A stretch of DNA of 64,000 nt from an uncultured Candidatus Saccharibacteria bacterium (GCA_964495425.1 CAZBVG010000002.1:78570-142569), one strand, 5' to 3'; shown: positions 1 through 28,840, numbered from the stretch's first letter. Translations and numbers: made by a program. The notes: generated from the sequence alone by a model not told the origin.

Positions 1-1529
1 ATTGCAACTCTTTGACGTTGGCCGCCTGAGAGTTGTAACCCGTTTTCGCCAATCAGGGTATCAAAACCCTTTGGCCTGAGTCGTGAGTAAAACTCATCAA
101 TTCTGGACATGGCAGCAAGACTTTCCAGTTCCTCCTGTGTTACCGTATCACCTTTACCGTTAAGTCCGTAGAGGATATTGTAACGAAGAGTGTTGTCCCA
201 CAGTTTCGGCTCTTGATCCACCAAACCAATCATTTCACGCCACCTATCTAGATCTAAATCACGGAGGTTATGACCATCAATCAGAATTTCTCCTTGATCT
301 GGGTCATAGCCCCGTTGCAATAGGTTGATGAGTGTTGACTTACCCGATCCCGAAGGCCCAACCAATGCAACCGTCTCTCCGCGATAAATCTGTAGGTTTA
401 TATTCTGGAGGGCGGTTTGGGTGTCTTCCTTTTTGTCTGATGACTCGTCTTCCTCGGTATCATCACCATTCAATTTGAATTCAGGATATTTAAATGAAAT
501 ATTTCTAAATTCAATTGAATTTCTGAATGAATCAAGCTTAACTGCCCCTGATTTCACTTTAACTGCTGGAGGTAAATCCAACAAATCAAAATATCTGCCC
601 ATGAGGATGAAGTTTCTTACGAGTCGTCTCTGGGTGTTACCAATACTTCCAAGCGCACTGTAACCTAATGCAACCAGACCCATGATAATAATTAGATCCG
701 ATTTACTCAGATCGTTATTCATTACATGAAGCGCTGCAAGCATGAGTATGAATACATGCCCTAAGGCGATAAACGGTTCACGAGTAAAGGTTAGCCTTGT
801 TACATAACCCGACCATATGTCCTTGTGATCGTCACCGTATTCGTTGTACTGGTCTCTGAATTCAGTAACCGCTCGTCTTTCCTGCGCACTTGAGATGACA
901 AGCCTTATGTGTTTGATCATTTCCCAGTAGGAGGTATTGACCTTATTTTCTTTCTTCTTATTAATCTTGATTCGAGGCAATAATTTATTATTGATTCGAA
1001 TACTAGACCAAACATAGAAGCCAATACTTACAAGTGCACAATACCCAATACTGAAATCAATCAAGAATAATGCAATAAGTGTGATAATTATTCTTGCGAC
1101 GGTTGGAATGAAGTCGAGGAAAAATGTGCCAATAAGCTCTCCTATAGCGGACTCACCTTTTTGTAGTGTTTCCTGTTTATATCCGGAGTTCTGATTGATA
1201 ACCTGCCCAATTGAGAATTTAGAAATTCTCTTGATTGTGAGCTGGGAAATATGACACTCTAGATCCGTGACTATCTTCTCAATGTGAATTTTAATGAGTT
1301 GCCAGTCAAACAGTTTTCCACCAAGTATCGCGAGGAGAAGAGCAAAAAGGCTTTGATAAAGATTTGTTAGATCTCCATCATCAACGCTTTTAACAAATTT
1401 TCCTGTGTAATAGGCAAAAATCACTCCCATTGATTGGGTGATTGTAACGAGGAGCGAAATGACCAGGAATGGCCCAAGGAATGGCCGATATATTTCCTTT
1501 ATCTGAGCCATTCGTTTCGATTTAATCAT
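1..1529 (-). CDS. ABC transporter, fused permease/ATP-binding protein (exporter type); 3' end runs off window
   Basis: My minus-strand translation from ATG at 1529 gives an N-terminal multi-TM domain followed by Walker A GPSGSGKST, LSGGQRQRVA signature. No stop before position 1. Confidence 0.85.
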   Translation of the reverse strand, partial: MIKSKRMAQIKEIYRPFLGPFLVISLLVTITQSMGVIFAYYTGKFVKSVDDGDLTNLYQSLFALLLAILGGKLFDWQLIKIHIEKIVTDLECHISQLTIKRISKFSIGQVINQNSGYKQETLQKGESAIGELIGTFFLDFIPTVARIIITLIALFLIDFSIGYCALVSIGFYVWSSIRINNKLLPRIKINKKKENKVNTSYWEMIKHIRLVISSAQERRAVTEFRDQYNEYGDDHKDIWSGYVTRLTFTREPFIALGHVFILMLAALHVMNNDLSKSDLIIIMGLVALGYSALGSIGNTQRRLVRNFILMGRYFDLLDLPPAVKVKSGAVKLDSFRNSIEFRNISFKYPEFKLNGDDTEEDESSDKKEDTQTALQNINLQIYRGETVALVGPSGSGKSTLINLLQRGYDPDQGEILIDGHNLRDLDLDRWREMIGLVDQEPKLWDNTLRYNILYGLNGKGDTVTQEELESLAAMSRIDEFYSRLRPKGFDTLIGENGLQLSGGQRQRVA

Positions 1530-13236: not shown

Positions 13237-15060
13237 TTAGTTAAGAACCGCTTTGATTCGTCGTACCCCAGCTGACACAGCTTCCTCTTTTTGGATTTTG
13301 AATGTACCGAGAATTCCAATGTTTTCAACGTGAGGACCACCGCAGAACTCTTTTGAGTATGCCGACTGCATCGTATCTCCAATATAGTAGACAGAAACAA
13401 TATCGCCGTATTTATCGCCAAAGAAATGAAGGGCACCTGTCTTTTCTGCCTCATCTTTAGGAAGTTCTACACGATGAACGGCCAATTTTGCCTTAATTTT
13501 TGAATTAACAATATCCTCAACCTTCTTTTTTTCCTCATCAGTCATTTTTGCTGTATGGGTAAAGTCGAAACGAAGTCGTTCTGGGGTGATATTTGACCCC
13601 TTTTGAGATACATGCGTCCCCAACACTTCTCGAAGCGCCTGATGAAGCAGATGGGTCGCGGTATGGTATTTAACTGACATTTCTGAGGTATCTCCGAGTC
13701 CGCCTTTAAATTTCTGCTCTGCACCCGCACGAGAAAGATCCTGATGCTTTTTAAATTCGATATCGAATGCTTTTACATCGACTTCAATCCCCTTTTCCTT
13801 TGCAAGTTCCTTGGTTACATCAATCGGCAATCCGTATGATGAAAATAATACAAATGCATCTGAACCCGAAAGAAGCTTGGTGTTTTTGGTGAATTTTTCA
13901 AACTGTACGGTAGCCTGAGAAAGGGCCTGGGCAAATTTATTGCATTCTTCATTAAGAACATGCTTGATATGATCAATTTTTTCTGAAAGTTCTGGGTACG
14001 CCCCTGCATAAGTTGCCACAATAGTATCTACAAAGACGCCAATGCGGTTTTCATCAAGTTTTTTGTCGGTGGTGTTGATTACTGCACGTCGAATGAGACG
14101 GCGGAGGATATATCCGCGATCGGTATTTGAAGGAATCACACCATCAGCTATGAGGAATGTGCTTGCTCGAAGATGATCAGCGATTATTCGCTTATTTTTA
14201 AGATCATTTTGAGCCTTTGCCATGAGATTCATGACCGGTTTCAAAAGATCGGTGTCATAGATGTTGTCTACTCCTTGCAAAGTCATTGTGAGACGCTCGA
14301 GACCGGCACCAGTATCAACGGATGGCTTTGGGAGCTTGCCTATGATCTTTCCGTTTTTCTTTTCATACTGCATGAACACATCGTTCCAGATTTCAATTAC
14401 ATCTCGAACATCGTCAGCTTCTACATACTCTGCATGGGTCAGTGTCTTGCCTCCAAATTTATTAGAAACATCATAAAACATTTCGGTATCAGGCCCGCAT
14501 GGTCCGTTATCACCTGCTTCCCACCAATTATTTTTTGCAGGTAAATAGAATATTCGCCCTGAAGCACCCTTTGTTGTATCACCGCCAAAATCGATCTTAT
14601 GCTTCGTAAATACATCTTTCCAAATTTGTGCAGCCTCATCATCTCGAGGGGCGTTTGCGTCGCCCTCAAAAACAGTCACGTAGAGTCGTTTAGGATCAAG
14701 ACCCAAACCTTCCTCCTTTGATGTGAGAAATTCATAGCTCCATGTTATTGCCTCCTTTTTGAAATAATCACCAAGTGACCAGTTTCCAAGCATTTCAAAG
14801 AATGTCGCGTGGGTTTTGTCACCAATGTCTTCAAGGTCTACCGTACGCATGCATTTCTGAACATCCACCAGACGAGTACCTTTTGGATGAGGTTTTCCAA
14901 GCAAAAATGGCACAAGCGGCTGCATGCCTGCAGTATTAAAGAGCGTCGCGTTTGTTACCCCTTTTTCATCGGGGGTGACGAGACTTGCCGAAGGGATAAC
15001 TGCATGCTGCCTTTTCTCAAAAAAGGCCAAAAAACGCTTACGGACTTCGCTTGATTTCAT
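13237..15060 (-). CDS. alaS: Alanine--tRNA ligase, short form (catalytic + tRNA-recognition + editing domain, no C-Ala domain)
   Basis: AlaRS N-terminal motifs, editing-domain HxxxH (HTATHLLHQALREVLGTH) and CGGPHV. Only 607 aa. Confidence 0.9.
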   Translation of the reverse strand: MKSSEVRKRFLAFFEKRQHAVIPSASLVTPDEKGVTNATLFNTAGMQPLVPFLLGKPHPKGTRLVDVQKCMRTVDLEDIGDKTHATFFEMLGNWSLGDYFKKEAITWSYEFLTSKEEGLGLDPKRLYVTVFEGDANAPRDDEAAQIWKDVFTKHKIDFGGDTTKGASGRIFYLPAKNNWWEAGDNGPCGPDTEMFYDVSNKFGGKTLTHAEYVEADDVRDVIEIWNDVFMQYEKKNGKIIGKLPKPSVDTGAGLERLTMTLQGVDNIYDTDLLKPVMNLMAKAQNDLKNKRIIADHLRASTFLIADGVIPSNTDRGYILRRLIRRAVINTTDKKLDENRIGVFVDTIVATYAGAYPELSEKIDHIKHVLNEECNKFAQALSQATVQFEKFTKNTKLLSGSDAFVLFSSYGLPIDVTKELAKEKGIEVDVKAFDIEFKKHQDLSRAGAEQKFKGGLGDTSEMSVKYHTATHLLHQALREVLGTHVSQKGSNITPERLRFDFTHTAKMTDEEKKKVEDIVNSKIKAKLAVHRVELPKDEAEKTGALHFFGDKYGDIVSVYYIGDTMQSAYSKEFCGGPHVENIGILGTFKIQKEEAVSAGVRRIKAVLN

Positions 15061-15523: not shown

Positions 15524-17281
15524 CTATTGTATACCAGCGGTCAATTTTTCCAACTGATCAATATCCTTGTCTATCGATGCGAGACCCTTTTCCCAAAAAT
15601 GAGGCTTTGTGACATCTATACCAATAGATTTAAAGATATTTTCTGGCGAGTCACTACCTCCAGCAGATAAGAATTTGTTTATTTTTTCGATATACGTTTT
15701 ATCTTCCTTATACTTTGCATAGAGCGCCTTTGAAATAAGCTGTCCGAAGGCATATGAATATACATAAAAGAATCGACGAATATGGCTCCACGAAACAAAA
15801 TGGTTTCCATCAAGTGGTTGCATTTTCATAATAGGACCTAGATATGAAGCCATGTGCTTGTTTAGCATTTCTCCAATTTCCTCTCGAGTTACTGCGCCCT
15901 TTTTACGAATTGTCGTATGAAGCTCTCTCTCAAAATTAAAACAGGCAATTTGGCGGAAAATAGTTTGAATGTCATCATTAATTTTTTTGTGAAGCGCAAG
16001 AATCTTTTCTTTATGGGAAAGCTTCTCAAAGACCGCATCAAAAACCATTGATTCAAAAAAGGTGCTGGCAACTTCGGCAGTAGAGGTTGTGTAATTTTGA
16101 TATAACGCTGTCTGCGCTTTTGAAAATTCGGTATGAATAGCATGCCCCATCTCATGAGCGAATGTCATTACCTGATCCATGCTGTTTGTGTAATTTAGAA
16201 GTACAAATGTCGGTACATTGGTACCCCCTCCGCAATATGCACCGTCTGTCTTTCCTATTTTTGGAAACACATCTATCTGTCCGTTCTCTAAAAATGTTTC
16301 AAGTATAGACAAATAACGCTTGTCTGCAGAACCAAACACGTCTTTTAAAATACCAGCAGCCTCTTCAAATGTAATTTCTTTTGTATTTTCACCGATACCC
16401 ACTGCGCGATCAGAATATTCTAGATGAGGAAGTTTAAGTAATTTTGCTTTGAGATTATAAAATCTATGGCTGATTGAGTATCGTTTCGTAACAGCGGAAA
16501 CAAGCGCAAGGACACTCTTCGCATCATTTTGGTAGCCTAAAACAGTGGCATCGTAAGGCTCTTTGAATCCTCTTAACTCATCGTTGATCTTTTTATCAGT
16601 AGCAATGGCATTAATTTCGCTTTCTGCGATTTCACTTACGCCCTTGAGAGTATTCATGACTGCTGCGTGGAGTTCACGACGTTCCTTGAGTGGCAATTCA
16701 TGAATTTTACTAGACGCTTCGCCCAAAGGCATTTTTTTACCCTTATATGTGACAACCTGTTTATTCAAAATTTTATCTGTTGCAGTGATCCAGTGCACAT
16801 ACGCTGGAATTGATTTAAGTCCGAGAATTTTTTCCTCTGATTCAGAAAGGTCATGCTTTGCTCGGCGGAAAACTGTATAAAGGTAATACGAGTAATGAGA
16901 AAGTTTCTTACTTTTTAGAAATTTCTTCTGTAGTGTAGCCGGAATTTTTGCTAACGAAAGCTCAAAGAAAACCACTTTGTTCTCATTTAACTGAAGCCGA
17001 GACATGAGCTTGGAAGACATCGCGCGAGATTCAGCATCATTAAAGAGATCCATGTGATAATGGAAGTACATAAGAGGCTTTGAAAGAGGATTTTGTTCAA
17101 AAATTGCCTCAAAATCGCTTAGCGCCTGAAGCAGTTTTGACTCATTTTTAAGATACGCTGATGTGCCCTTATACTTTTTTTCAAATTTAGAGTAGGCAGC
17201 CTCAAATGCCTTAACATCCTTTTCAATGTGAGGGTCAGTATGGCTTTTATAGAGCAAAGCAAGGTTCCAGGTGGTCTGCAT
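15524..17281 (-). CDS. pepF: Oligoendopeptidase F (M3 family zinc metallopeptidase)
   Basis: HEXXH zinc motif HEMGHAIH and M3B-like length and organisation. Confidence 0.85.
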   Translation of the reverse strand: MQTTWNLALLYKSHTDPHIEKDVKAFEAAYSKFEKKYKGTSAYLKNESKLLQALSDFEAIFEQNPLSKPLMYFHYHMDLFNDAESRAMSSKLMSRLQLNENKVVFFELSLAKIPATLQKKFLKSKKLSHYSYYLYTVFRRAKHDLSESEEKILGLKSIPAYVHWITATDKILNKQVVTYKGKKMPLGEASSKIHELPLKERRELHAAVMNTLKGVSEIAESEINAIATDKKINDELRGFKEPYDATVLGYQNDAKSVLALVSAVTKRYSISHRFYNLKAKLLKLPHLEYSDRAVGIGENTKEITFEEAAGILKDVFGSADKRYLSILETFLENGQIDVFPKIGKTDGAYCGGGTNVPTFVLLNYTNSMDQVMTFAHEMGHAIHTEFSKAQTALYQNYTTSTAEVASTFFESMVFDAVFEKLSHKEKILALHKKINDDIQTIFRQIACFNFERELHTTIRKKGAVTREEIGEMLNKHMASYLGPIMKMQPLDGNHFVSWSHIRRFFYVYSYAFGQLISKALYAKYKEDKTYIEKINKFLSAGGSDSPENIFKSIGIDVTKPHFWEKGLASIDKDIDQLEKLTAGIQ

Positions 17282-21409: not shown

Positions 21410-22471
21410 CTATTTCAAATATTTCTCTTTGTTCACTAAATGCTGCTCATATGTCACAGCTGGATGAAATCCTCCCTGTGGGTCAGTAAGATAAAAATAA
21501 TATTTCGTTTTTGTTGGGTGAATTGCTGCACGAATTGCTTCTAATCCCGGGTTAGAAATTGGGGTTGGTGGAAAGCCAAGGTTGAGATAGGTGTTGTACG
21601 GGGATTTCATTTGAAAATCTTCTGAACTCAAATGATTACCATCTGGCTTGCCAGTCGCGTACACCACTGAGGCATCAACTTGTAGCGGCATCTTTTCATC
21701 AAGACGCTTCCACAAAATATCTGCAATTACTTGTCGTGTCTCGTATACTCTGCCTTCTTCTTCGAGTATAGAAGCCATGTTAATAAGCTGCTCAATAGGT
21801 CGGCTCGATGATGCGATATCTTGCGAAATTGTTTCAATTTTTTGCTTATGAGTATCAAGCATCACTTTAACAACTTCCTCAGCTGTTATATTCGGCAAGA
21901 AAAGATATGTCTCAGGAAATAAGTATCCTTCGTATGGTGATGCGACTTTAATAAACTGGGCTTTGCTGAATCGCGAGAATTTTTGCTCCTTCGCAAAAAT
22001 ATCTGCAATTTGCTTGACAGTAAGTCCTTCTGGAATAGTGATTCGGACATTTTTCAGATCAAACCCGGCATGTGTAAGTCTCCATGCAAGTTTGAGCGAA
22101 CTCTGCGGTTTCTCTAGGTAATATTCACCAGCAAGTAGCCCTTTGGTACCACCAAACAATGTCATAAAGACTTTAAAGGCGAATTCCGACCTTATTACCC
22201 GCAACGTGCGCAATTCCTGTGCCCCACCAGAAAGTGTTTGCCCACTTTTGATAACTACAACTGTGTCCTTTGGAAATTCTGTTGGTGGAGCAACCAATAA
22301 TTTATATAGAAGTACAAATACGGTGAATATAATGAATCCCGCACAATACCAAAATCTCCACTTAAAGATGTGTGATTGAAAAGGAGGCACTGATGATTGT
22401 GTCTCCTGGGGTAAAGGATTTTGTGTGGGAAAAGTAGGTTCCATATTAGACAGGAAGATTTGATGGAGCAT
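21410..22471 (-). CDS. mltG: Endolytic murein transglycosylase MltG (YceG-like)
   Basis: N-terminal TM anchor plus YceG-like domain. Confidence 0.8.
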   Translation of the reverse strand: MLHQIFLSNMEPTFPTQNPLPQETQSSVPPFQSHIFKWRFWYCAGFIIFTVFVLLYKLLVAPPTEFPKDTVVVIKSGQTLSGGAQELRTLRVIRSEFAFKVFMTLFGGTKGLLAGEYYLEKPQSSLKLAWRLTHAGFDLKNVRITIPEGLTVKQIADIFAKEQKFSRFSKAQFIKVASPYEGYLFPETYLFLPNITAEEVVKVMLDTHKQKIETISQDIASSSRPIEQLINMASILEEEGRVYETRQVIADILWKRLDEKMPLQVDASVVYATGKPDGNHLSSEDFQMKSPYNTYLNLGFPPTPISNPGLEAIRAAIHPTKTKYYFYLTDPQGGFHPAVTYEQHLVNKEKYLK

Positions 22472-23690
22472 CTGCTCGCTTCGATGGGATTCGTTTGAGT
22501 GTTGGTGTTGTTACCGCGCTTCCTGGGAAGTGATAAATTGTTGCCAACTCCTCGGTGTTGAGAACCGTTGCTTTTTTCTTGTATGGATAATGGAAATATC
22601 CGCGATCTCGGTATGCTTTAAAATGACCAACTTTCTGCTCAGCGAGCTTCTTACCCTTCCAATCCTGCCATTTGTAGTCAAAACCCATTCCAGCTGGTTT
22701 AAAACCATTAAGATGAGGTGCGTTAAATTGTTTAAATGAGCCCATTAATCCTCCTCCAATGCCTTTATCAAATATGTCCTTTGGAGCGATATACAGCACT
22801 CGAATTCCGGCATCGAATGCGAACTTCGAAATACTACGTTCAATAGCTGAAATACGTTCTTTTTGACCTTCTGTAAGCTTTACGGAATTAGGAGTTTTGC
22901 TTCCTTCATCATCCTCAACAGCAGATTCCTCAATAATAGCCTTGATAAGTTCCTTTGCTTCATCCTTCCACTTATCCGGATACTTTTCGTTCAAAGGAGT
23001 TTTTTCCTGAGTGTGAGCACGAACAATAATTTGTATCCACGCCTGATGCCCCTTTTTAAGTGAGCCTAAAAACTCAACAAGCGGTGCAAGTGGATCGATC
23101 TTGTATTCTTCCTTTGGATCCTTATCCAAACCATAATCGACGTATGTCTTTATCGGTAATGGATCAGGCCCAGTTGCCTCGAACCGACATCCTGCTATGT
23201 CATGCTTGCTCGCATCGTATGGCATTTTATGCACATAATCATCGACTTGGTGGATTTCAACACCCGGATATTGAGCATAAATATTAGTTTCAATAATATT
23301 TCTCTGACTCTTAAATGTCCAAATATAGAAATGAATTTCACCGTCAATTGAAACTAACTCAAGTGAAAAGTAAGGGCGTACTTTACCTTCCCAATATCGA
23401 TCAATTGGTGTACCTTCACCACCTGTTTGGTACAAAGCCAATAACACAAGCTCCATTGCTAGCGGAGATTTAATCGTCTCCTGTGGCAACTTTATTTCAA
23501 GCAATACCTTTTCTTGTTTTCGAATCCAATCGTATCTTTTGTATCGTGTCCAAAAAACCCAGGTAAATTCAAAGAGAAGCGCTGGCACCCAAATGACCGC
23601 AAGAAACACAAGCCACCTGAGAGTCTCAGGAAATAGAATATGAAGCACGAAATACGGAAGATCTGTTGCAATGAGTGAGAAGATATTCAC
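22446..23690 (-). CDS. Hypothetical membrane protein (414 aa)
   Basis: Two or three N-terminal TM helices then a large soluble domain. No known motif. Overlaps mltG start by 26 nt. Confidence 0.5.
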   Translation of the reverse strand: MNIFSLIATDLPYFVLHILFPETLRWLVFLAVIWVPALLFEFTWVFWTRYKRYDWIRKQEKVLLEIKLPQETIKSPLAMELVLLALYQTGGEGTPIDRYWEGKVRPYFSLELVSIDGEIHFYIWTFKSQRNIIETNIYAQYPGVEIHQVDDYVHKMPYDASKHDIAGCRFEATGPDPLPIKTYVDYGLDKDPKEEYKIDPLAPLVEFLGSLKKGHQAWIQIIVRAHTQEKTPLNEKYPDKWKDEAKELIKAIIEESAVEDDEGSKTPNSVKLTEGQKERISAIERSISKFAFDAGIRVLYIAPKDIFDKGIGGGLMGSFKQFNAPHLNGFKPAGMGFDYKWQDWKGKKLAEQKVGHFKAYRDRGYFHYPYKKKATVLNTEELATIYHFPGSAVTTPTLKRIPSKRADAPSNLPV

Positions 23691-23720
23691 GGTCTAATTT
23701 TACTAAACTAGCGCCATATT

Positions 23721-23752
23721 GCAAAGCAAAACCACCTGTTTGCAGGTGGTTT
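23721..23752 (-). terminator. Rho-independent terminator (AAACCACCTG-TTTG-CAGGTGGTTT) after the sigma-r4 gene
   Basis: 9-10 bp stem followed by a T-rich run on minus. Confidence 0.5.
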
Positions 23753-23756
23753 GTGC

Positions 23757-24785
23757 TTATACAATCGAGTAGCGACCCTCTTTGTCTTTCTTGAAGTACT
23801 TTGGGTTCTGAAGATTAACGAGGATAGTGTTTTCCTTAACATATCGCTCCTTCATAACTTTATCGATAACTTCCTTTTTGGTGAGTGGTCCGTTCTTTTC
23901 AATTACTTTCTTGATAACGTCCTTAACTACACCTGACATGTAACCCCATTCTGAGAGTGCGTAGAGTCCTCGGCCAACAAGAACGAATCGAGGATCCTTA
24001 ATAAGCTCGTTGTGGGTTGTTGCAACATGAGCCTTCTTGTTAAACATTTTTTCAATCTGCTTCGCTACTTCTCGGAAGTGGATTGGAGAACCGTGCTTTC
24101 GGATAACGAGGAACGCGTAGTCTCGCATACCTTTTGCCTTGATGTTTGGAGACTGAGATACACCCCATTCGCCGAGTGGATTCTTGCCCACCTTCTTTGA
24201 TAGAGAGAGCCATCGCTTGAGAATCTCATCATTTCGATATGTGTCATTGAGGCCTTCGATATGATTTAGGAACGTATCAATCATTTCTGATTCAGGAATG
24301 ATGTCATCATCCTTGAGGTTTTTATAAAGCTTTTTAAGTGCCTCTTCAACCTTTTTTGAGGTTGCCTCATCTACATGCCATCGGTGCTTGAAATGATCAT
24401 CTTCCTTCTGCCACTTGAACGCTCGGCCAAGTACGAGGAGGAAATAAATGTGATTTTGGATTGATGGATCCTTTGAAACACTGTCCAAGAGATCTTCTTC
24501 TGCCATAACGCCACCCATCTCAGTCATCATTGCTTCGAGCTCTTTAAACGCCACATTCTGAGCCTCATATTCCTTTGATTTCTGGATGTTTGAGATAGCG
24601 TAGTTTTCAATCTGTCGAACGCGCTCTCGAGTGATGCCATAGGTCTTTCCGATAGCCTCAAGAGTCATTTTTGAAGGCTCTTTCCCAAGGCCATATCGCT
24701 TAATGATAACCTCCTGAGCACGATCAGGAAGACTCTTTAGAAGAGCCTTTACTACCTGCTTAGGTTTGAGCGTGAGCGTAGTCAT
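23757..24785 (-). CDS. Sigma-70 region-4-like HTH protein with ~250-aa C-terminal domain of unknown function
   Basis: Residues ~15-70 match sigma-70 region 4 (…QEVIIKRYGLGKEPSKMTLEAIGKTYGITRERVRQIENYAISNI…). No regions 1-3. Confidence 0.6.
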   Translation of the reverse strand: MTTLTLKPKQVVKALLKSLPDRAQEVIIKRYGLGKEPSKMTLEAIGKTYGITRERVRQIENYAISNIQKSKEYEAQNVAFKELEAMMTEMGGVMAEEDLLDSVSKDPSIQNHIYFLLVLGRAFKWQKEDDHFKHRWHVDEATSKKVEEALKKLYKNLKDDDIIPESEMIDTFLNHIEGLNDTYRNDEILKRWLSLSKKVGKNPLGEWGVSQSPNIKAKGMRDYAFLVIRKHGSPIHFREVAKQIEKMFNKKAHVATTHNELIKDPRFVLVGRGLYALSEWGYMSGVVKDVIKKVIEKNGPLTKKEVIDKVMKERYVKENTILVNLQNPKYFKKDKEGRYSIV

Positions 24786-24898: not shown

Positions 24899-27862
24899 CT
24901 ACCGTACTACGATTGAAACAAGTTTGCCTGGTACCACGATAATTTTCTCTGGCTGTTTCCCTTCTAACCATTTTTTAACATCTGGAAGCGCCAAGGCCTT
25001 TTGCTCAATTTCACTTTTTCCTGCTGTTTTTGCTGCTTCAAAGGTACCTCTTACTTTTCCATTTACCTGGACAACAATCGTAACTGACTCACTCACAAGC
25101 TTTGACTCATCTACCATTGGCCACTCTGACGTGTGGATTGATTTCTTGTTTCCAAGCATACTCCACAACTCCTCAGTTACATGAGGAGCAAGGGGTGCTA
25201 AAAGTTTAAGAAATGCCTCATAGAAATTCTTTGAAAGCGCTCCAGCCTTCTCCATTTCGTTCGAGAGGATCATTAGCGAGCTTACAGCCGTATTGTGTCG
25301 AAGGGTAGCAATATCATCAGTGACTTTTTTGATTGTTTTGTGGAGCAAGACATCGAGTTCATTACTCATCTGCGCATCCTTAGAGACTTTTTCAGATAAT
25401 TTCCAAACACGTTCTAAGAATCTGCGTGAACCGAGAATACCTGAGGTTGACCATGCAATTGCCTGATCGAAAGGACCCATGAACATCTCGTACACACGGA
25501 GAGTGTCCGCACCATATGTTTCAACAATGGTGTCAGGATTAACAACATTTCCAAAACGCTTCGACATTTTTCGGCCATCCTCACCCATAATAAGACCTAC
25601 CGACTGAAGTTTCTTGAAAGGCTCAGTCGTTGAGACTGCACCGATATCATATAGAAACTTGTGCCAGAATCGCGCATAAATCAAATGACGCGTTGCATGC
25701 TCTGCACCACCAACATAGAAATCAACTTGGTTCCAATATTTTTCTTTTTTCGTATCAACAAGTGATTTGGTATTTGCAGGATCCATATAACGAAGGTAAT
25801 ACCACGAAGAACCTGCCCATTGAGGCATAGTATTTGTTTCCCGTTTAAGAATCCTTGAATTCTTTCCTTTTCCAACTCTCACATATACCCATTTATCGAT
25901 TGCGGCTAAAGGAGATTCGCCGGTGCCAGTCGGTTCGTATGATTTAACCTTAGGTAGTGTAACCGGAAGATCCTTTTCACTTACCGAGACAATTTCGTGC
26001 GGCATGATGGATTCCAACTTTGCCCATAACGCATGAGCCTCCTTCCCGTTTTTTGAATTGAAATGACCAAAGCCATCCCACTCTTCAATCTTCCACGTTG
26101 AAGGAAGCTCACCGTGAGTTTCAGCCTGAACATACGGATCATCCTTTGAACGAATGAGCGTTATATTTGGTGTATACGTTGTTATCTGTTTGTAATCCAA
26201 AGGTTCCTGCCAAAACTTTTTAAGTGCAGGAATATCTGATTTTTGATCCTCTTTTTGCATTGATTCCCAATGCTTTTCGCTTCGTACGCGTCCTACCGCG
26301 CTAGCTACAAGGAAAAGGTGCCCGATATTACGTTTTGTTGTAGAAACTAAACGCAAGGCAGCATTTGATCCAAGGCTGTGCCCTACAATCAGGTCATCTG
26401 GACCGAAATTTTTTACCAGCGGTTCTAGTTCATTCATCCACGATTCAACCGTTGGGTGTTTCGATGTAGAAATAGTTGGATTAAATACCTCAACTCCCCG
26501 CTCTTCAAGAATCTGTTTAAGTTTTTTAAACCAGTGGTTAGTGCCATTACCCTCAAATCCATGAATAAGAAGAGCTTTTTTGGCTTTAAGTCCTTGTAGA
26601 AGAGGAAAAGGTTCGCCCCAGTAACGCTGTCGTGAGAACACCCAATCCTTAAGCTTGTACTTAACTACCCACTTACCACCAACTGATTCTGTGATCTTTT
26701 TTCGCGCATCTGTTGATTTCATGCCAGTAAAAGCACCCGAATCAATGAGTGTGTCCTGTTCATCAATAACCACCTTACTCATAAGGCTAAATTTTTGAGC
26801 AAACTGTTCATCTCTTTCATCGTGAGCAGGAACAGCCATCACTGCACCCGTTCCGTATTCAGCAAGTACATAATCTGCTACAAATACAGGTACTTCCTCA
26901 TTATTAGCTGGATTGATCGCGAAAACACCCTCAAGCTTTATACCTGTTTTATCTTTCTTAGCATCAGTTCTTTCAATCTCAGTCATTACGCGAGCCGAGG
27001 CAACATACTTAATGACTTCCGCATGATTCTTTATATTTTCCTTATGCTTAAGTATCTCAGTTACAAACGTGTGCTCAGGAGCAACAACTACATACGTAAC
27101 ACCGAAAAGTGTATCTGGCCGTGTAGTAAATACTTTAAGTTTTTCACCTCTACCTTTAATAGCAAAATCAATTTCAGCTCCCTCTGAACGACCGATCCAA
27201 TTTCGCTGTGATTCCTTTATTGATTCCGGCCAATCGAGCCCATCAATATCTTTCAAAAGTCGATCAGCATACTCAGTGATTTTAAGAACCCACTGTCGCA
27301 TCGGCTTCTTTTCAACTGGAGTACCGCAGCGTTCGCACTTTCCATCCTCCACATCCTCATTAGCTAAGCCTGTTTTACATGAAGGACACCAATTAATTGG
27401 TTCATATGACTCATACGCTAGTCCTTTTTCTAATAGCTTAAGGAAAATCCACTGTGTCCATTTGTAAAATTTTGGATCTGTCGTATTAACCTCTCGCGCC
27501 CAGTCGTAATCAAAACCAATAATTTCAAGCTGCTTTTTATATCGAGCGACGTTCTTGGCAACCGAATCCATGGGATTAGTTTTTGTTTTGATGGCATAGT
27601 TTTCAGCCGGCAAGCCAAAAGCATCAAATCCCATTGGATGAAGTACATTAAAGCCAGCCATCCTTTTCTGACGAGCTACAATATCAGTGGCGATGTAGCC
27701 TTTTGGATGACCAACATGGAGCCCTTCACCTGAAGGGTATGGAAACATATCAAGAATATAAAACTTCGGTTTTTTAAATGAATCCTCTGTCTTATAAACT
27801 TTTGTCTTCTCCCACTCCTTCTGCCACTTCTTTTCTATTTTTCTGTGATCGTATTGAGTCAT
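24899..27862 (-). CDS. leuS: Leucine--tRNA ligase carrying an inserted serine-hydrolase (alpha/beta hydrolase, RBBP9/YdeN-like) domain
   Basis: HIGH (HVGHP), CP1 editing region (TTRPDT…AHDERD), DWVFSRQRYWGEPFP, KMSKR, conserved C-terminus (VQVNGKVRG…VVPGKLVSIVV). About 200 extra aa between RYWGEPFP and the SSWYY motif contain GHSLG plus Asp/His. Confidence 0.9.
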   Translation of the reverse strand: MTQYDHRKIEKKWQKEWEKTKVYKTEDSFKKPKFYILDMFPYPSGEGLHVGHPKGYIATDIVARQKRMAGFNVLHPMGFDAFGLPAENYAIKTKTNPMDSVAKNVARYKKQLEIIGFDYDWAREVNTTDPKFYKWTQWIFLKLLEKGLAYESYEPINWCPSCKTGLANEDVEDGKCERCGTPVEKKPMRQWVLKITEYADRLLKDIDGLDWPESIKESQRNWIGRSEGAEIDFAIKGRGEKLKVFTTRPDTLFGVTYVVVAPEHTFVTEILKHKENIKNHAEVIKYVASARVMTEIERTDAKKDKTGIKLEGVFAINPANNEEVPVFVADYVLAEYGTGAVMAVPAHDERDEQFAQKFSLMSKVVIDEQDTLIDSGAFTGMKSTDARKKITESVGGKWVVKYKLKDWVFSRQRYWGEPFPLLQGLKAKKALLIHGFEGNGTNHWFKKLKQILEERGVEVFNPTISTSKHPTVESWMNELEPLVKNFGPDDLIVGHSLGSNAALRLVSTTKRNIGHLFLVASAVGRVRSEKHWESMQKEDQKSDIPALKKFWQEPLDYKQITTYTPNITLIRSKDDPYVQAETHGELPSTWKIEEWDGFGHFNSKNGKEAHALWAKLESIMPHEIVSVSEKDLPVTLPKVKSYEPTGTGESPLAAIDKWVYVRVGKGKNSRILKRETNTMPQWAGSSWYYLRYMDPANTKSLVDTKKEKYWNQVDFYVGGAEHATRHLIYARFWHKFLYDIGAVSTTEPFKKLQSVGLIMGEDGRKMSKRFGNVVNPDTIVETYGADTLRVYEMFMGPFDQAIAWSTSGILGSRRFLERVWKLSEKVSKDAQMSNELDVLLHKTIKKVTDDIATLRHNTAVSSLMILSNEMEKAGALSKNFYEAFLKLLAPLAPHVTEELWSMLGNKKSIHTSEWPMVDESKLVSESVTIVVQVNGKVRGTFEAAKTAGKSEIEQKALALPDVKKWLEGKQPEKIIVVPGKLVSIVVR
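26003..26596 (-). other. In-frame serine-hydrolase-like domain insertion within leuS (residues ~423-620)
   Basis: LLIHGFEGNGTNHWF…DLIVGHSLGSNAALRL…RSKDDPYV…WDGFGHFN resembles the YdeN/RBBP9 Ser_hydrolase family with a Ser-Asp-His triad. Confidence 0.6.
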
Positions 27863-27865
27863 TGA

Positions 27866-28840
27866 TTAGAGATTCTGTATAACTGGTGTTCCGACATTTG
27901 CTTTGTTGTACACAGGATATAGCTGTGGATCTATTGTTCGGTCAAAACAGACATTACCAGCGCTGTGCTTCCATGTGTCATTAGCAGCCGGCATCGTTCC
28001 ATAAGCGCGATACGGCATTGAGTTTGTGTCTGCAGTATTGCTTTCCAGATTAAAGGTTGCACATAGCTTAAACGACATTTGACCTGTTTTTGTATATGAA
28101 TACTCACGTCCTTCGGGATCACGTGGGACCATGTAACCTGAAATTGAATCCTGTATGTCTGTTATCTGATTTGGAAGAGTACCCTTTTGCTGCCAGTAAT
28201 TAATAATTTGCCACTGTATATTGCTTAGATCACTAATTCGAGTTTCATCAAATCTCACTTTTCGCGCGGTCATCGGAGAACCTACGTAAATAAGACCGCC
28301 AATGAGAGTTCCGAATACAAAGAGACATGCAAGTGAAACTATGAGCTTTGCTCGATTTGGCATCTCAGGAGTGAAATCCTTTTTAAGGTCGTAGAGATAA
28401 TACGCAAACACAGCACCTGAAACGACAAGTACAGAAACTACCTTAAGAACAAATCTACTCGTAATTTCTCCACCAAGGAATGTATTAACGAGAAAAATGA
28501 GGTCAGTTACGACTGCTACTCCAGTAACAAACAAGGTGAGGTATGTAAGCCACTTTCGCACGCTTAGTTCCTTTTTCTCAGGATGTGCTCTGAGATATCG
28601 ATTCAAGTATGAAGCGACTATTAGATACAGCGGAAATACAATGACAAGACAGGCAATTGCCGCTCGCATACCGGCAGAGTAGAAATCTCCCCCGTAGTAG
28701 TAATAGCTAGAAAGATTATCCGGAAACGCCTTATTAATAATGTTAAATAGAAGTGTAATAAGAGAAATCGAGCTTACGTAGAGGGTAACGAAGCTAGAAA
28801 GATAGACAAAGAAGTCCTTAGCTGTAGTTTTAGGTTGCAT
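27866..28840 (-). CDS. Hypothetical polytopic membrane protein with C-terminal extracellular domain
   Basis: Five or six TM helices in the first ~200 aa. Soluble Tyr/Asn-rich C-terminus. Confidence 0.5.
   Translation of the reverse strand: MQPKTTAKDFFVYLSSFVTLYVSSISLITLLFNIINKAFPDNLSSYYYYGGDFYSAGMRAAIACLVIVFPLYLIVASYLNRYLRAHPEKKELSVRKWLTYLTLFVTGVAVVTDLIFLVNTFLGGEITSRFVLKVVSVLVVSGAVFAYYLYDLKKDFTPEMPNRAKLIVSLACLFVFGTLIGGLIYVGSPMTARKVRFDETRISDLSNIQWQIINYWQQKGTLPNQITDIQDSISGYMVPRDPEGREYSYTKTGQMSFKLCATFNLESNTADTNSMPYRAYGTMPAANDTWKHSAGNVCFDRTIDPQLYPVYNKANVGTPVIQNL

Follow-up and report, generated by a model that had tools for sequence, protein, structure and literature searches.

A predicted YdeN/RBBP9-type serine hydrolase nested in the Zn2 hairpin of a bacterial leucyl-tRNA synthetase

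The fidelity of aminoacyl-tRNA synthetases (aaRSs) is thought to rest on a small known set of editing folds, to which the YdeN/RBBP9 family of alpha/beta serine hydrolases does not belong. In the aminopeptidase human RBBP9, the substrate must have a free alpha-amine, and its amino acid becomes attached to the enzyme in an aminoacyl-serine (acyl-enzyme) intermediate (PMC8866121). ML-005, a metagenomic esterase of the YdeN family with an AHSLG nucleophile elbow and a catalytic triad validated by mutagenesis, acts on short soluble esters, e.g., p-nitrophenyl (pNP)-butyrate, and YdeN itself has been inferred to act on soluble esters or thioesters, since it is without a lid (PMC6119806). Here we describe a predicted hydrolase of this family that lies, in frame, inside the leucyl-tRNA synthetase (LeuRS) encoded by leuS on a 64,000-nucleotide stretch of DNA (hereafter the window) from an uncultured Candidatus Saccharibacteria bacterium (GCA_964495425.1, CAZBVG010000002.1:78570-142569). 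We characterized the insert and its host, surveyed related LeuRSs for similar architectures, and weighed the roles that such a nested enzyme may have.

Identity and placement of the nested hydrolase

Between the motifs RYWGEPFP (aa 413-420) and SSWYY (aa 685-689), the window LeuRS carries 264 aa, compared with 60 to 77 aa in relatives without an insert here, i.e., approximately 196 extra aa. An initial annotation of the window had placed some 200 additional in-frame residues at 26003-26596 (equivalent to aa 423-620) and had assigned them to a YdeN/RBBP9-type hydrolase with Ser-Asp-His order, and both readings were borne out. Pfam matched aa 431-608 to PF06821 (Ser_hydrolase) at E=6.1e-19, a score far above chance (69 bits, where the gathering threshold is 22) that spans positions 2-161 of the 172 in the model, and a PDB search with a profile built from 22 orthologous inserts recovered YdeN (1UXO) at E=2.8e-28 and human RBBP9 at approximately 2e-16. 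An AlphaFold2 (AF2) model of aa 421-625 had a mean predicted local distance difference test score (pLDDT) of 93.2 and a predicted TM-score (pTM) of 0.90, and its strands and helices follow one another as in a minimal alpha/beta hydrolase; when this model was compared with the PDB by Foldseek, the top seven matches were all 1UXO or RBBP9 entries (2QS9, 7OEX, 9FCR), with TMt values of 0.77-0.85, the best being 1UXO (TMt 0.85; root-mean-square deviation 2.5 Å). The models thus show the insert as a complete, independently folding alpha/beta serine hydrolase of the YdeN/RBBP9 family, and the alternative raised in the initial annotation, of a segment that matches no alpha/beta hydrolase and models as disordered or as a LeuRS-specific insertion, fails on the same Pfam score and model confidence. 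We regard the hydrolase identity and the nested architecture as near-certain. An exhaustive search with the insert yielded 1089 relatives; the insert alone (209 aa) found no match in a word-indexed protein search, which reflects a limit of sensitivity rather than uniqueness, the full protein being present in the same database.

With regard to the point of insertion, the alignment with the Thermus thermophilus LeuRS structure 1H3N breaks off at query residue 422 (1H3N residue 437) and restarts at query residue 624 (1H3N residue 444), the insert taking the place of six tip residues of the first Zn2 knuckle (T. thermophilus 438-443, with C439 and C442). Zn2 is the name used for this module in recent LeuRS structures (PMC9424281). 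By alignment, then, the insert is located outside the Rossmann core, in the Zn2 hairpin, which is a peripheral appendage to the aminoacylation domain; the initial annotation was right that a hydrolase is nested in frame within LeuRS, but the catalytic core, where it had placed the fusion, is not the site. A full-length AF2 model (pLDDT 84.9; pTM 0.76) put the hydrolase between the two hairpin strands, so that its N- and C-termini are predicted to meet there, as is typical of nested domains; confidence in this model was lower at the junction blocks (pLDDT 69-74). In the clade of the window LeuRS all four Cys ligands of Zn2 have been lost (window 25850-25990, aa ~625-672), whereas the sister clade retains them: Zn-less members have 'LHDGDK...' and 'VKVGKGKNAK' where others have 'HCxxCG' and 'CPKC', and the second Zn2 knuckle of the window LeuRS reads VRVGKGKNSRIL, with no Cys. 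Insertion as an intein or mobile element was considered and rejected, as inteins and endonucleases were absent from the Pfam matches of the protein, the insert is not bordered by any meaningful repeats, and GC content across the insert region is flat (0.40-0.45), with no compositional break.

Conservation was evaluated in an alignment of 184 domains that comprised 42 from LeuRSs with the insert at this hairpin (referred to below as site 4), 17 from LeuRSs with inserts at two other sites (sites 2 and 3), 119 from free-standing proteins, and 6 from other multidomain or unclassified proteins. The nucleophile Ser496 was found in 42 of 42 site-4, 17 of 17 site-2/3 and 118 of 119 free-standing domains. 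The catalytic acid Asp575 is represented by 39 Asp and 3 Glu among the 42 site-4 domains (100% Asp in the main site-4 clade and 97% in free-standing relatives), and His600 is invariant in the site-4 (42/42) and site-2/3 (17/17) inserts. In the oxyanion-region motif LLIHGFEG (aa 431-438), H434 is present in 41 and G435 in all 42 of the site-4 inserts, and the His also in 115 of the 119 free-standing proteins. A putative lid extension of about 13 residues, with Trp532 97% conserved in the site-4 clade, occupies columns that are gapped in 44-98% of free-standing relatives (56-98% for aa 529-539), and the AF2 model places helices at 529-538 and 544-552 in this region; this clade-specific extension suggests that the substrate pocket may have become specialized after capture. 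Relative to the closest insert-bearing ortholog gene (L007), dN was 0.24 for the insert and 0.10 and 0.20 for the two LeuRS halves; dS was saturated at 1.4-2.5, and dN/dS supports only a rough statement of purifying selection. As far as these sequences can tell, purifying selection is of similar magnitude in the insert and its host, the insert evolving about as slowly as the C-terminal half of the latter. The conserved triad, HG motif and lid extension, together with this slow evolution, point to a selected and catalytically competent module, such that the nested hydrolase is apparently active.

Judged by its motifs, the host protein is a colinear LeuRS of the bacterial type in which every synthetic and editing motif is intact, as the initial annotation had read the 987-aa open reading frame (ORF); every motif that it had quoted was found. 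The protein scored 976.6 bits against the TIGR00396 leuS_bact equivalog (cut-off 548.4), the match falling into two stretches split by the insert, and its best solved relative was 1H3N (E=1.2e-197). The N-terminal part comprises the first Rossmann half, the ZN1/CP1 hairpin, the editing domain, and the return strand to RYWGEPFP; the C-terminal part comprises the rest of the Zn2 module, the second Rossmann half, KMSKR, the anticodon-binding domain, and the C-terminal domain. In the CP1 editing domain, the T-rich motif TTRPDT (246-251) and AHDERD (346-351) are intact, and T246, T247, R248, D250, T251, H347, D348, R350, and D351 are invariant in 44 homologs, with or without inserts, which argues that the added domain is no replacement for a degenerate editing site. 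The leucine-specific domain, which precedes KMSKS in T. thermophilus and Escherichia coli LeuRS, is absent from the window protein; query residues 760-766 align to 1H3N 579-638, and the last Rossmann strand is separated from KMSKR by 'GEDGR' alone (25556-25590). No second leuS was seen among the subset of ORFs that were annotated in the window of only 64 kb.

The identical 987-aa protein occurs on 7 contigs, three of which were read back from ERZ27309396 (ENA), SRR6747781, and SRR6747782 (Logan); these three share the gene order YchF, DUF378, DUF5671, leuS, sigma-70-like protein, DUF8128, YceG. The recurrence of the same protein with the same neighbors in different assemblies excludes a one-off chimeric join. 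Related genomes, where the initial annotation had proposed to look for further examples, contain orthologs with the same architecture at 56-77% overall identity, and insert identities track core identities in the sequences compared (insert 68% and core 86/74% for P0002; insert 59-64% and core 79/68-70% for P0003 to P0005). Syntenic leuS genes without the insert were also found, namely P0006 (89% identity in the N-terminal and 75% in the C-terminal half) and P0015 (84% and 72%).

Recurrent nesting among related synthetases

Among the 120 best LeuRS relatives, inserts were found at five sites, s1 to s5 (Table 1). As shown by domain searches of these sequences, LeuRSs of Paceibacteria carry predicted Ser_hydrolase modules at three loops, NUDIX modules at two, and a HAD module at one, in or near the editing domain, singly or in combination, and with patchy distribution. 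Ser_hydrolase domains account for 30 of the 31 inserts at s4, the site used by the window LeuRS; P0020 (1078 aa) has an s4 insert of ~130 aa that matched nothing in Pfam or the PDB, and a guess that it represents an ASCH domain was supported by neither. Pfam scans located NUDIX at s1 in P0021 and at s3 in P0008, Ser_hydrolase at s2 in P0072, NUDIX at s3 together with Ser_hydrolase at s4 in P0004, and NUDIX at s1 and s3 flanking Ser_hydrolase at s2 in P0095; P0110 has three NUDIX stretches in one LeuRS, and P0100 (1519 aa) combines NUDIX and Ser_hydrolase with a HAD_2 phosphatase-type domain (aa 996-1151) at s5. The exhaustive insert search added Ser_hydrolase domains at s3 (P0135, P0148, P0151, P0157, P0169) and, in P0133, two in tandem at s2. 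The best 150 representatives from that search include 26 proteins longer than 300 aa, of which 22 are LeuRSs or LeuRS fragments, so that LeuRS is by far the predominant multidomain host for this branch of the family. The 78 usable loci from GTDB species genomes included 6 LeuRSs with Ser_hydrolase and 24 with NUDIX, and 5 of these genomes have Ser_hydrolase at the hairpin used in the window. The related loci are in metagenome-assembled genomes labeled Paceibacterota, Parcubacteria, Minisyncoccia, Nomurabacteria, Taylorbacteria, Kaiserbacteria, Yonathbacteria and similar, all Patescibacteria/candidate phyla radiation (CPR). We consider recurrent hydrolase nesting in Paceibacteria LeuRS to be a more interesting result than the single insert.

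The nested NUDIX module (~120-170 aa) is far commoner than the serine hydrolase, and all s3 examples checked by Pfam in the 120-member set were NUDIX; related sequences occur in P0008, P0021, P0095, and P0110 and in loci L009-L085, and the best solved relative of the module is, weakly, the Ap4A hydrolase 3I7U (E=3.5e-4). The NUDIX modules of P0008 (s3) and P0021 (s1) are clearly the same module by sequence and reside in closely related LeuRSs, pointing either to a move within the gene or to more than one capture. Nested domains are also found inside the CP1 domain itself, at PF13603 profile positions ~20 and ~142-146 (P0072, P0095, P0008, P0135, P0148). In a 2026 survey of domain insertions, PF13603 was listed as an insertion-only family with no instance as host (PMC13114784), a status that the s2 and s3 architectures contradict.

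Gain and loss were assessed with neighbor-joining (NJ) trees. In the NJ domain tree the main s4 clade is monophyletic and lies beside the free-standing proteins P0131, P0132, P0136, and P0228; the s2 clade lies elsewhere, beside other free-standing proteins, and the s3 examples are scattered. These positions in different parts of the tree suggest several independent captures of Ser_hydrolase modules. On the NJ core tree, the minimum numbers of state changes were 15 (s1), 7 (s2), 26 (s3), and 12 (s4), consistent with very patchy presence; these counts come from quick NJ trees, are inflated by tree error, and are to be read as similar to upper bounds. The s4 insert is present in LeuRSs that have all four Zn2 cysteines ("HCENC-KTKKALLIHG...SDG-VVPVPE") and in the Zn-less clade of the window ("LLQGLKAKKALLIHG...HEIVSVSEK"). 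The insert-less hairpin of the Zn-less clade, "LHDGDKIVPVSEK", is well conserved, and hence P0001/2, P0003/4, and P0005 seem to have gained the insert separately or to have received it by recombination; P0006 ("PLLFDNGKPIPV") may represent a secondary loss of the insert.

Candidate roles of the nested hydrolase

Recurrent, host-specific capture argues for a functional link to substrates or products of LeuRS, and this pattern, considered together with the chemistry known for RBBP9 and ML-005, led us to rate a LeuRS-coupled hydrolase as the most likely role, if only tentatively. The nested domain would, in this reading, be an auxiliary hydrolase of an acyl or aminoacyl ester, amide, or anhydride that is made or held by LeuRS; candidate substrates are the (mis)acylated 3' ends of tRNA-Leu or released non-cognate aminoacyl-adenylates. 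Its activity on soluble substrates would add to the intact CP1 editing function and not replace it, and the NUDIX partner found in relatives may clear dinucleotide by-products. Known folds for editing, trans-editing, or deacylation (CP1, YbaK/INS, AlaX, DTD, Pth) had no detectable homology in the insert in Pfam, NCBIfam, and PDB searches; as the insert matches alpha/beta-hydrolase families only, it would, if it were a tRNA deacylase, represent a new fold for that job. A broader proposal, which we consider unlikely though worth stating, is that Paceibacteria LeuRS may serve as a hydrolase-recruiting scaffold around the hinge of the editing domain, providing an extra layer of clean-up or proofreading that is physically coupled to leucylation; this would include the first alpha/beta-hydrolase acting in cis on an aminoacyl-tRNA ester or a released aminoacyl-adenylate, with NUDIX removing ApnA-type by-products.

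Several observations weigh against a coupled role. The same hydrolase family sits at three different LeuRS loops, so that no precise geometry seems to be needed, which fits a loosely tethered autonomous enzyme as well. No core residue convincingly tracked the insert in the Zn-bearing and Zn-less clades (best score, 0.87 of 2), giving no sign of a co-adapted interface, and the embedded domains have no clear RNA-binding charge signature, with a median isoelectric point of 6.5 versus 5.6 for free domains, only a small shift. The existence of close syntenic relatives without the insert indicates that it is dispensable, the fully conserved CP1 site leaves no obvious need for additional editing, and the literature yielded no information on where the Zn2 hairpin lies with respect to tRNA or the active sites.

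These observations bear directly on the possibility, somewhat doubtful in our assessment, that the domain is an autonomous housekeeping esterase or aminopeptidase that occupies a permissive loop and acts on a substrate unrelated to leucylation, the fusion securing its expression and retention in a tiny genome. The lack of co-varying core residues and of an RNA-binding charge signature fits such an enzyme, as do the accommodation of three unrelated hydrolase superfamilies and one module of unknown type in five or more variable surface loops, patchy presence even between syntenic genomes, and junction linkers whose modest pLDDT is consistent with a loose tether. However, it speaks against a passenger of this kind that LeuRS is the host in 22 of 26 multidomain matches, that one family was taken up at three LeuRS sites from different free-standing lineages, that the inserted modules identified are all hydrolases and not a random sample of domains, and that the site-4 clade gained its own conserved lid extension after capture.

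Improbable, in our judgment, is a role in substrate supply, in which an aminopeptidase would remove N-terminal hydrophobic residues (Leu) from scavenged peptides, as RBBP9 does, and feed the synthetase of an auxotrophic symbiont. CPR bacteria are generally auxotrophic for amino acids, and the window encodes an M3 oligopeptidase (15524-17281), consistent with peptide scavenging. The RBBP9 aminopeptidase, for its part, favors substrates whose N-terminal residue is hydrophobic or aromatic, and depends on a free alpha-amine (PMC8866121). Yet the insert is nearer to YdeN (E=3e-28) than to RBBP9 (E=2e-16), and the one characterized bacterial member of the family is an esterase; the RBBP9 residues that anchor the alpha-amine (Ser76, Tyr99, Glu108) are not obviously conserved, position 497 being Leu and the Glu108 region being replaced by the lid extension. 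Moreover, free leucine would diffuse off without a channel, so that the tether would bring little, and the co-inserted NUDIX and HAD modules would be left unexplained.

A catalytically dead structural or regulatory spacer, e.g., a stand-in for the lost zinc knuckle, is very improbable: it would suit the absence of the Zn2 Cys ligands from this clade, but Ser496 and His600 are invariant, the HG motif is invariant or nearly so, and Asp575 is acidic throughout, while the same insert is found in LeuRSs with all four Zn2 cysteines and insert-less, Zn-less members get by with a 9-residue hairpin. Finally, an artefact, i.e., a chimeric assembly, a possibility raised in the initial annotation, or leuS fragments wrongly joined to a separate hydrolase gene in gene calling, is scarcely conceivable given one continuous ORF without stops, the identical protein on 7 contigs from at least three assemblies with the same neighbors, Ser_hydrolase at the same hairpin in 30 of the 120 closest LeuRS clusters and in 5 GTDB species genomes, flat GC content, no junction repeats, and a LeuRS sequence that resumes in register on both sides.

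Should the hydrolase prove to act on aminoacyl products, as the coupled role would have it, it would extend translational quality control by one more layer and by a fold new to this task. Even an uncoupled module would represent a striking case of recurrent nested-domain capture, with two or three hydrolase families in five loops of one essential enzyme, with gains and losses among near-identical syntenic genomes, and with the editing domain itself as a host. The system may thus be useful for studies of domain-insertion tolerance, for aaRS engineering, and for understanding how functions are packed in genome-reduced CPR symbionts, and it provides the poorly understood YdeN/RBBP9 family with a concrete, testable physiological context.

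Locus context and comparison with described systems

Table 1. Features of the window leuS gene and insertion sites in related LeuRSs. Residue numbers refer to the window LeuRS, except for sites s1 to s5, which are numbered on the insert-less LeuRS P0006 and given with their frequency among the 120 best relatives.
Feature	Residues (aa)	Window position	Strand	Basis or remark
leuS ORF, LeuRS with nested hydrolase	987 plus stop codon	24899..27862	-	single unbroken reading frame
N-terminal LeuRS part	1-420	26603..27862	-	Pfam tRNA-synt_1, tRNA-synt_1g; aligns to 1H3N residues 1-437
HIGH signature HVGH	49-52	27707..27718	-	motif scan; invariant across 44 homologs
ZN1/CP1-hairpin zinc knuckles CPSC...CERC	159-179	27326..27388	-	translation; C159, C176, C179 invariant
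CP1 editing domain	220-393	26684..27205	-	PF13603, E=5.5e-57
Zn2 hairpin strand 1, LLQGL	421-425	26588..26602	-	strand in full-length AF2 model; leads into insert
Nested YdeN/RBBP9-type serine hydrolase (predicted)	426-620 (~195 aa)	26003..26587	-	Pfam, PDB profile search, AF2, Foldseek
HG oxyanion motif	H434-G435	26558..26563	-	after strand beta-1; alignment of 184 domains
Nucleophile elbow GHSLG	494-498	26369..26383	-	Ser496 codon at 26375-26377
Putative lid extension	529-541 (~13 residues)	26240..26278	-	near-invariant Trp532; then conserved S542-D543, F550-W551
Catalytic acid (predicted)	Asp575	26138..26140	-	motif S572-x-D-D575, in RSKDDPYV 571-578; alignment
Catalytic His (predicted)	His600	26063..26065	-	in GFGHFN 597-602; alignment
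Zn2 hairpin strand 2, HEIVS	622-626	25985..25999	-	AF2 strand; chain returns to LeuRS
C-terminal LeuRS part	627-987	24902..25984	-	PF08264, E=1.2e-20; aligns to 1H3N 444-579, 638-877
KMSKR	765-769	25556-25570	-	invariant or near-invariant in 44 homologs
Site s1	~208			just ahead of editing domain; 20/120
Site s2	~241			in editing domain, few residues ahead of TTRPDT; 10/120
Site s3	~368-378			in editing domain, past AHDERD; 69/120
Site s4	~435-441			Zn2 hairpin, site used by window LeuRS; 31/120
Site s5	~478-488			farther along Zn2 region; 1/120

The neighbors of leuS (window 22446-24785 and 27866-28840, minus strand) are conserved across relatives regardless of insert status; a DUF5671 membrane protein is encoded directly upstream, separated by a 3-nt gap, and the other neighbors include a sigma-70 region-4/HARE-HTH protein and a DUF8128 protein. 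Elsewhere the window carries rpoB, rpoC, dnaK, uvrA, uvrB, dnaG, AlaRS, and G6PD; the AlaRS (13237-15060, minus strand) is only 607 aa long, with the catalytic and the editing-associated SAD domain, the usual C-terminal extension seemingly being missing. Of 44 window ORFs of at least 150 aa, the minus strand carries 41; of the remaining three, at least two overlap longer minus-strand ORFs. The cumulative GC skew drops almost monotonically over 22-31 kb. The window thus has an extreme gene-strand bias of the kind reported for some CPR genomes.

Full-text literature searches found no paper on a hydrolase (alpha/beta, NUDIX, or HAD) nested in LeuRS or another aaRS. The statement in the initial annotation that it knew of no such fusion nevertheless needs qualifying: the architecture is not unique but is common in LeuRSs of Paceibacteria/Parcubacteria and some members have already been auto-annotated by JGI as 'leucyl-tRNA synthetase/predicted alpha/beta hydrolase family esterase'. 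The architecture is therefore undescribed in the literature but already present in public databases, a new arrangement of known parts.

Among described proteins, Bacillus subtilis YdeN (1UXO; PF06821, COG3545) is the best match to the window domain in both sequence and fold, with which it shares a minimal alpha/beta fold of ~185 aa, the HG motif, the xHSLG elbow, and the Ser-Asp-His order; YdeN is free-standing, however, whereas the window domain is nested in LeuRS and has the ~13-residue Trp lid extension that YdeN lacks. Human RBBP9 (2QS9, 7OEX, 9FCR) belongs to the same family and fold (Foldseek probability 1.0; identity ~20%), and its chemistry is directly analogous to the cleavage of an aminoacyl ester, although its alpha-amine anchors are not evidently conserved in the window domain; unlike that domain, RBBP9 is a stand-alone eukaryotic protein, and it has an LxCxE Rb-binding motif. 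ML-005, the only biochemically characterized bacterial family member that we found, is secreted and free-standing, and is likened to the window domain by its description, not by sequence. With regard to architecture, the CP1 (PF13603) and ProRS INS/YbaK editing domains are likewise hydrolases built into or attached to the body of an aaRS, where they remove wrong aminoacyl products; CP1, however, is unrelated to the nested hydrolase in fold and mechanism and is without a Ser-His-Asp triad. Finally, an IleRS with an N-acetyltransferase domain (NCBIfam NF040702) provides a precedent for a class Ia synthetase with an extra catalytic domain, in that case from the GNAT family instead of the YdeN/RBBP9 hydrolases.

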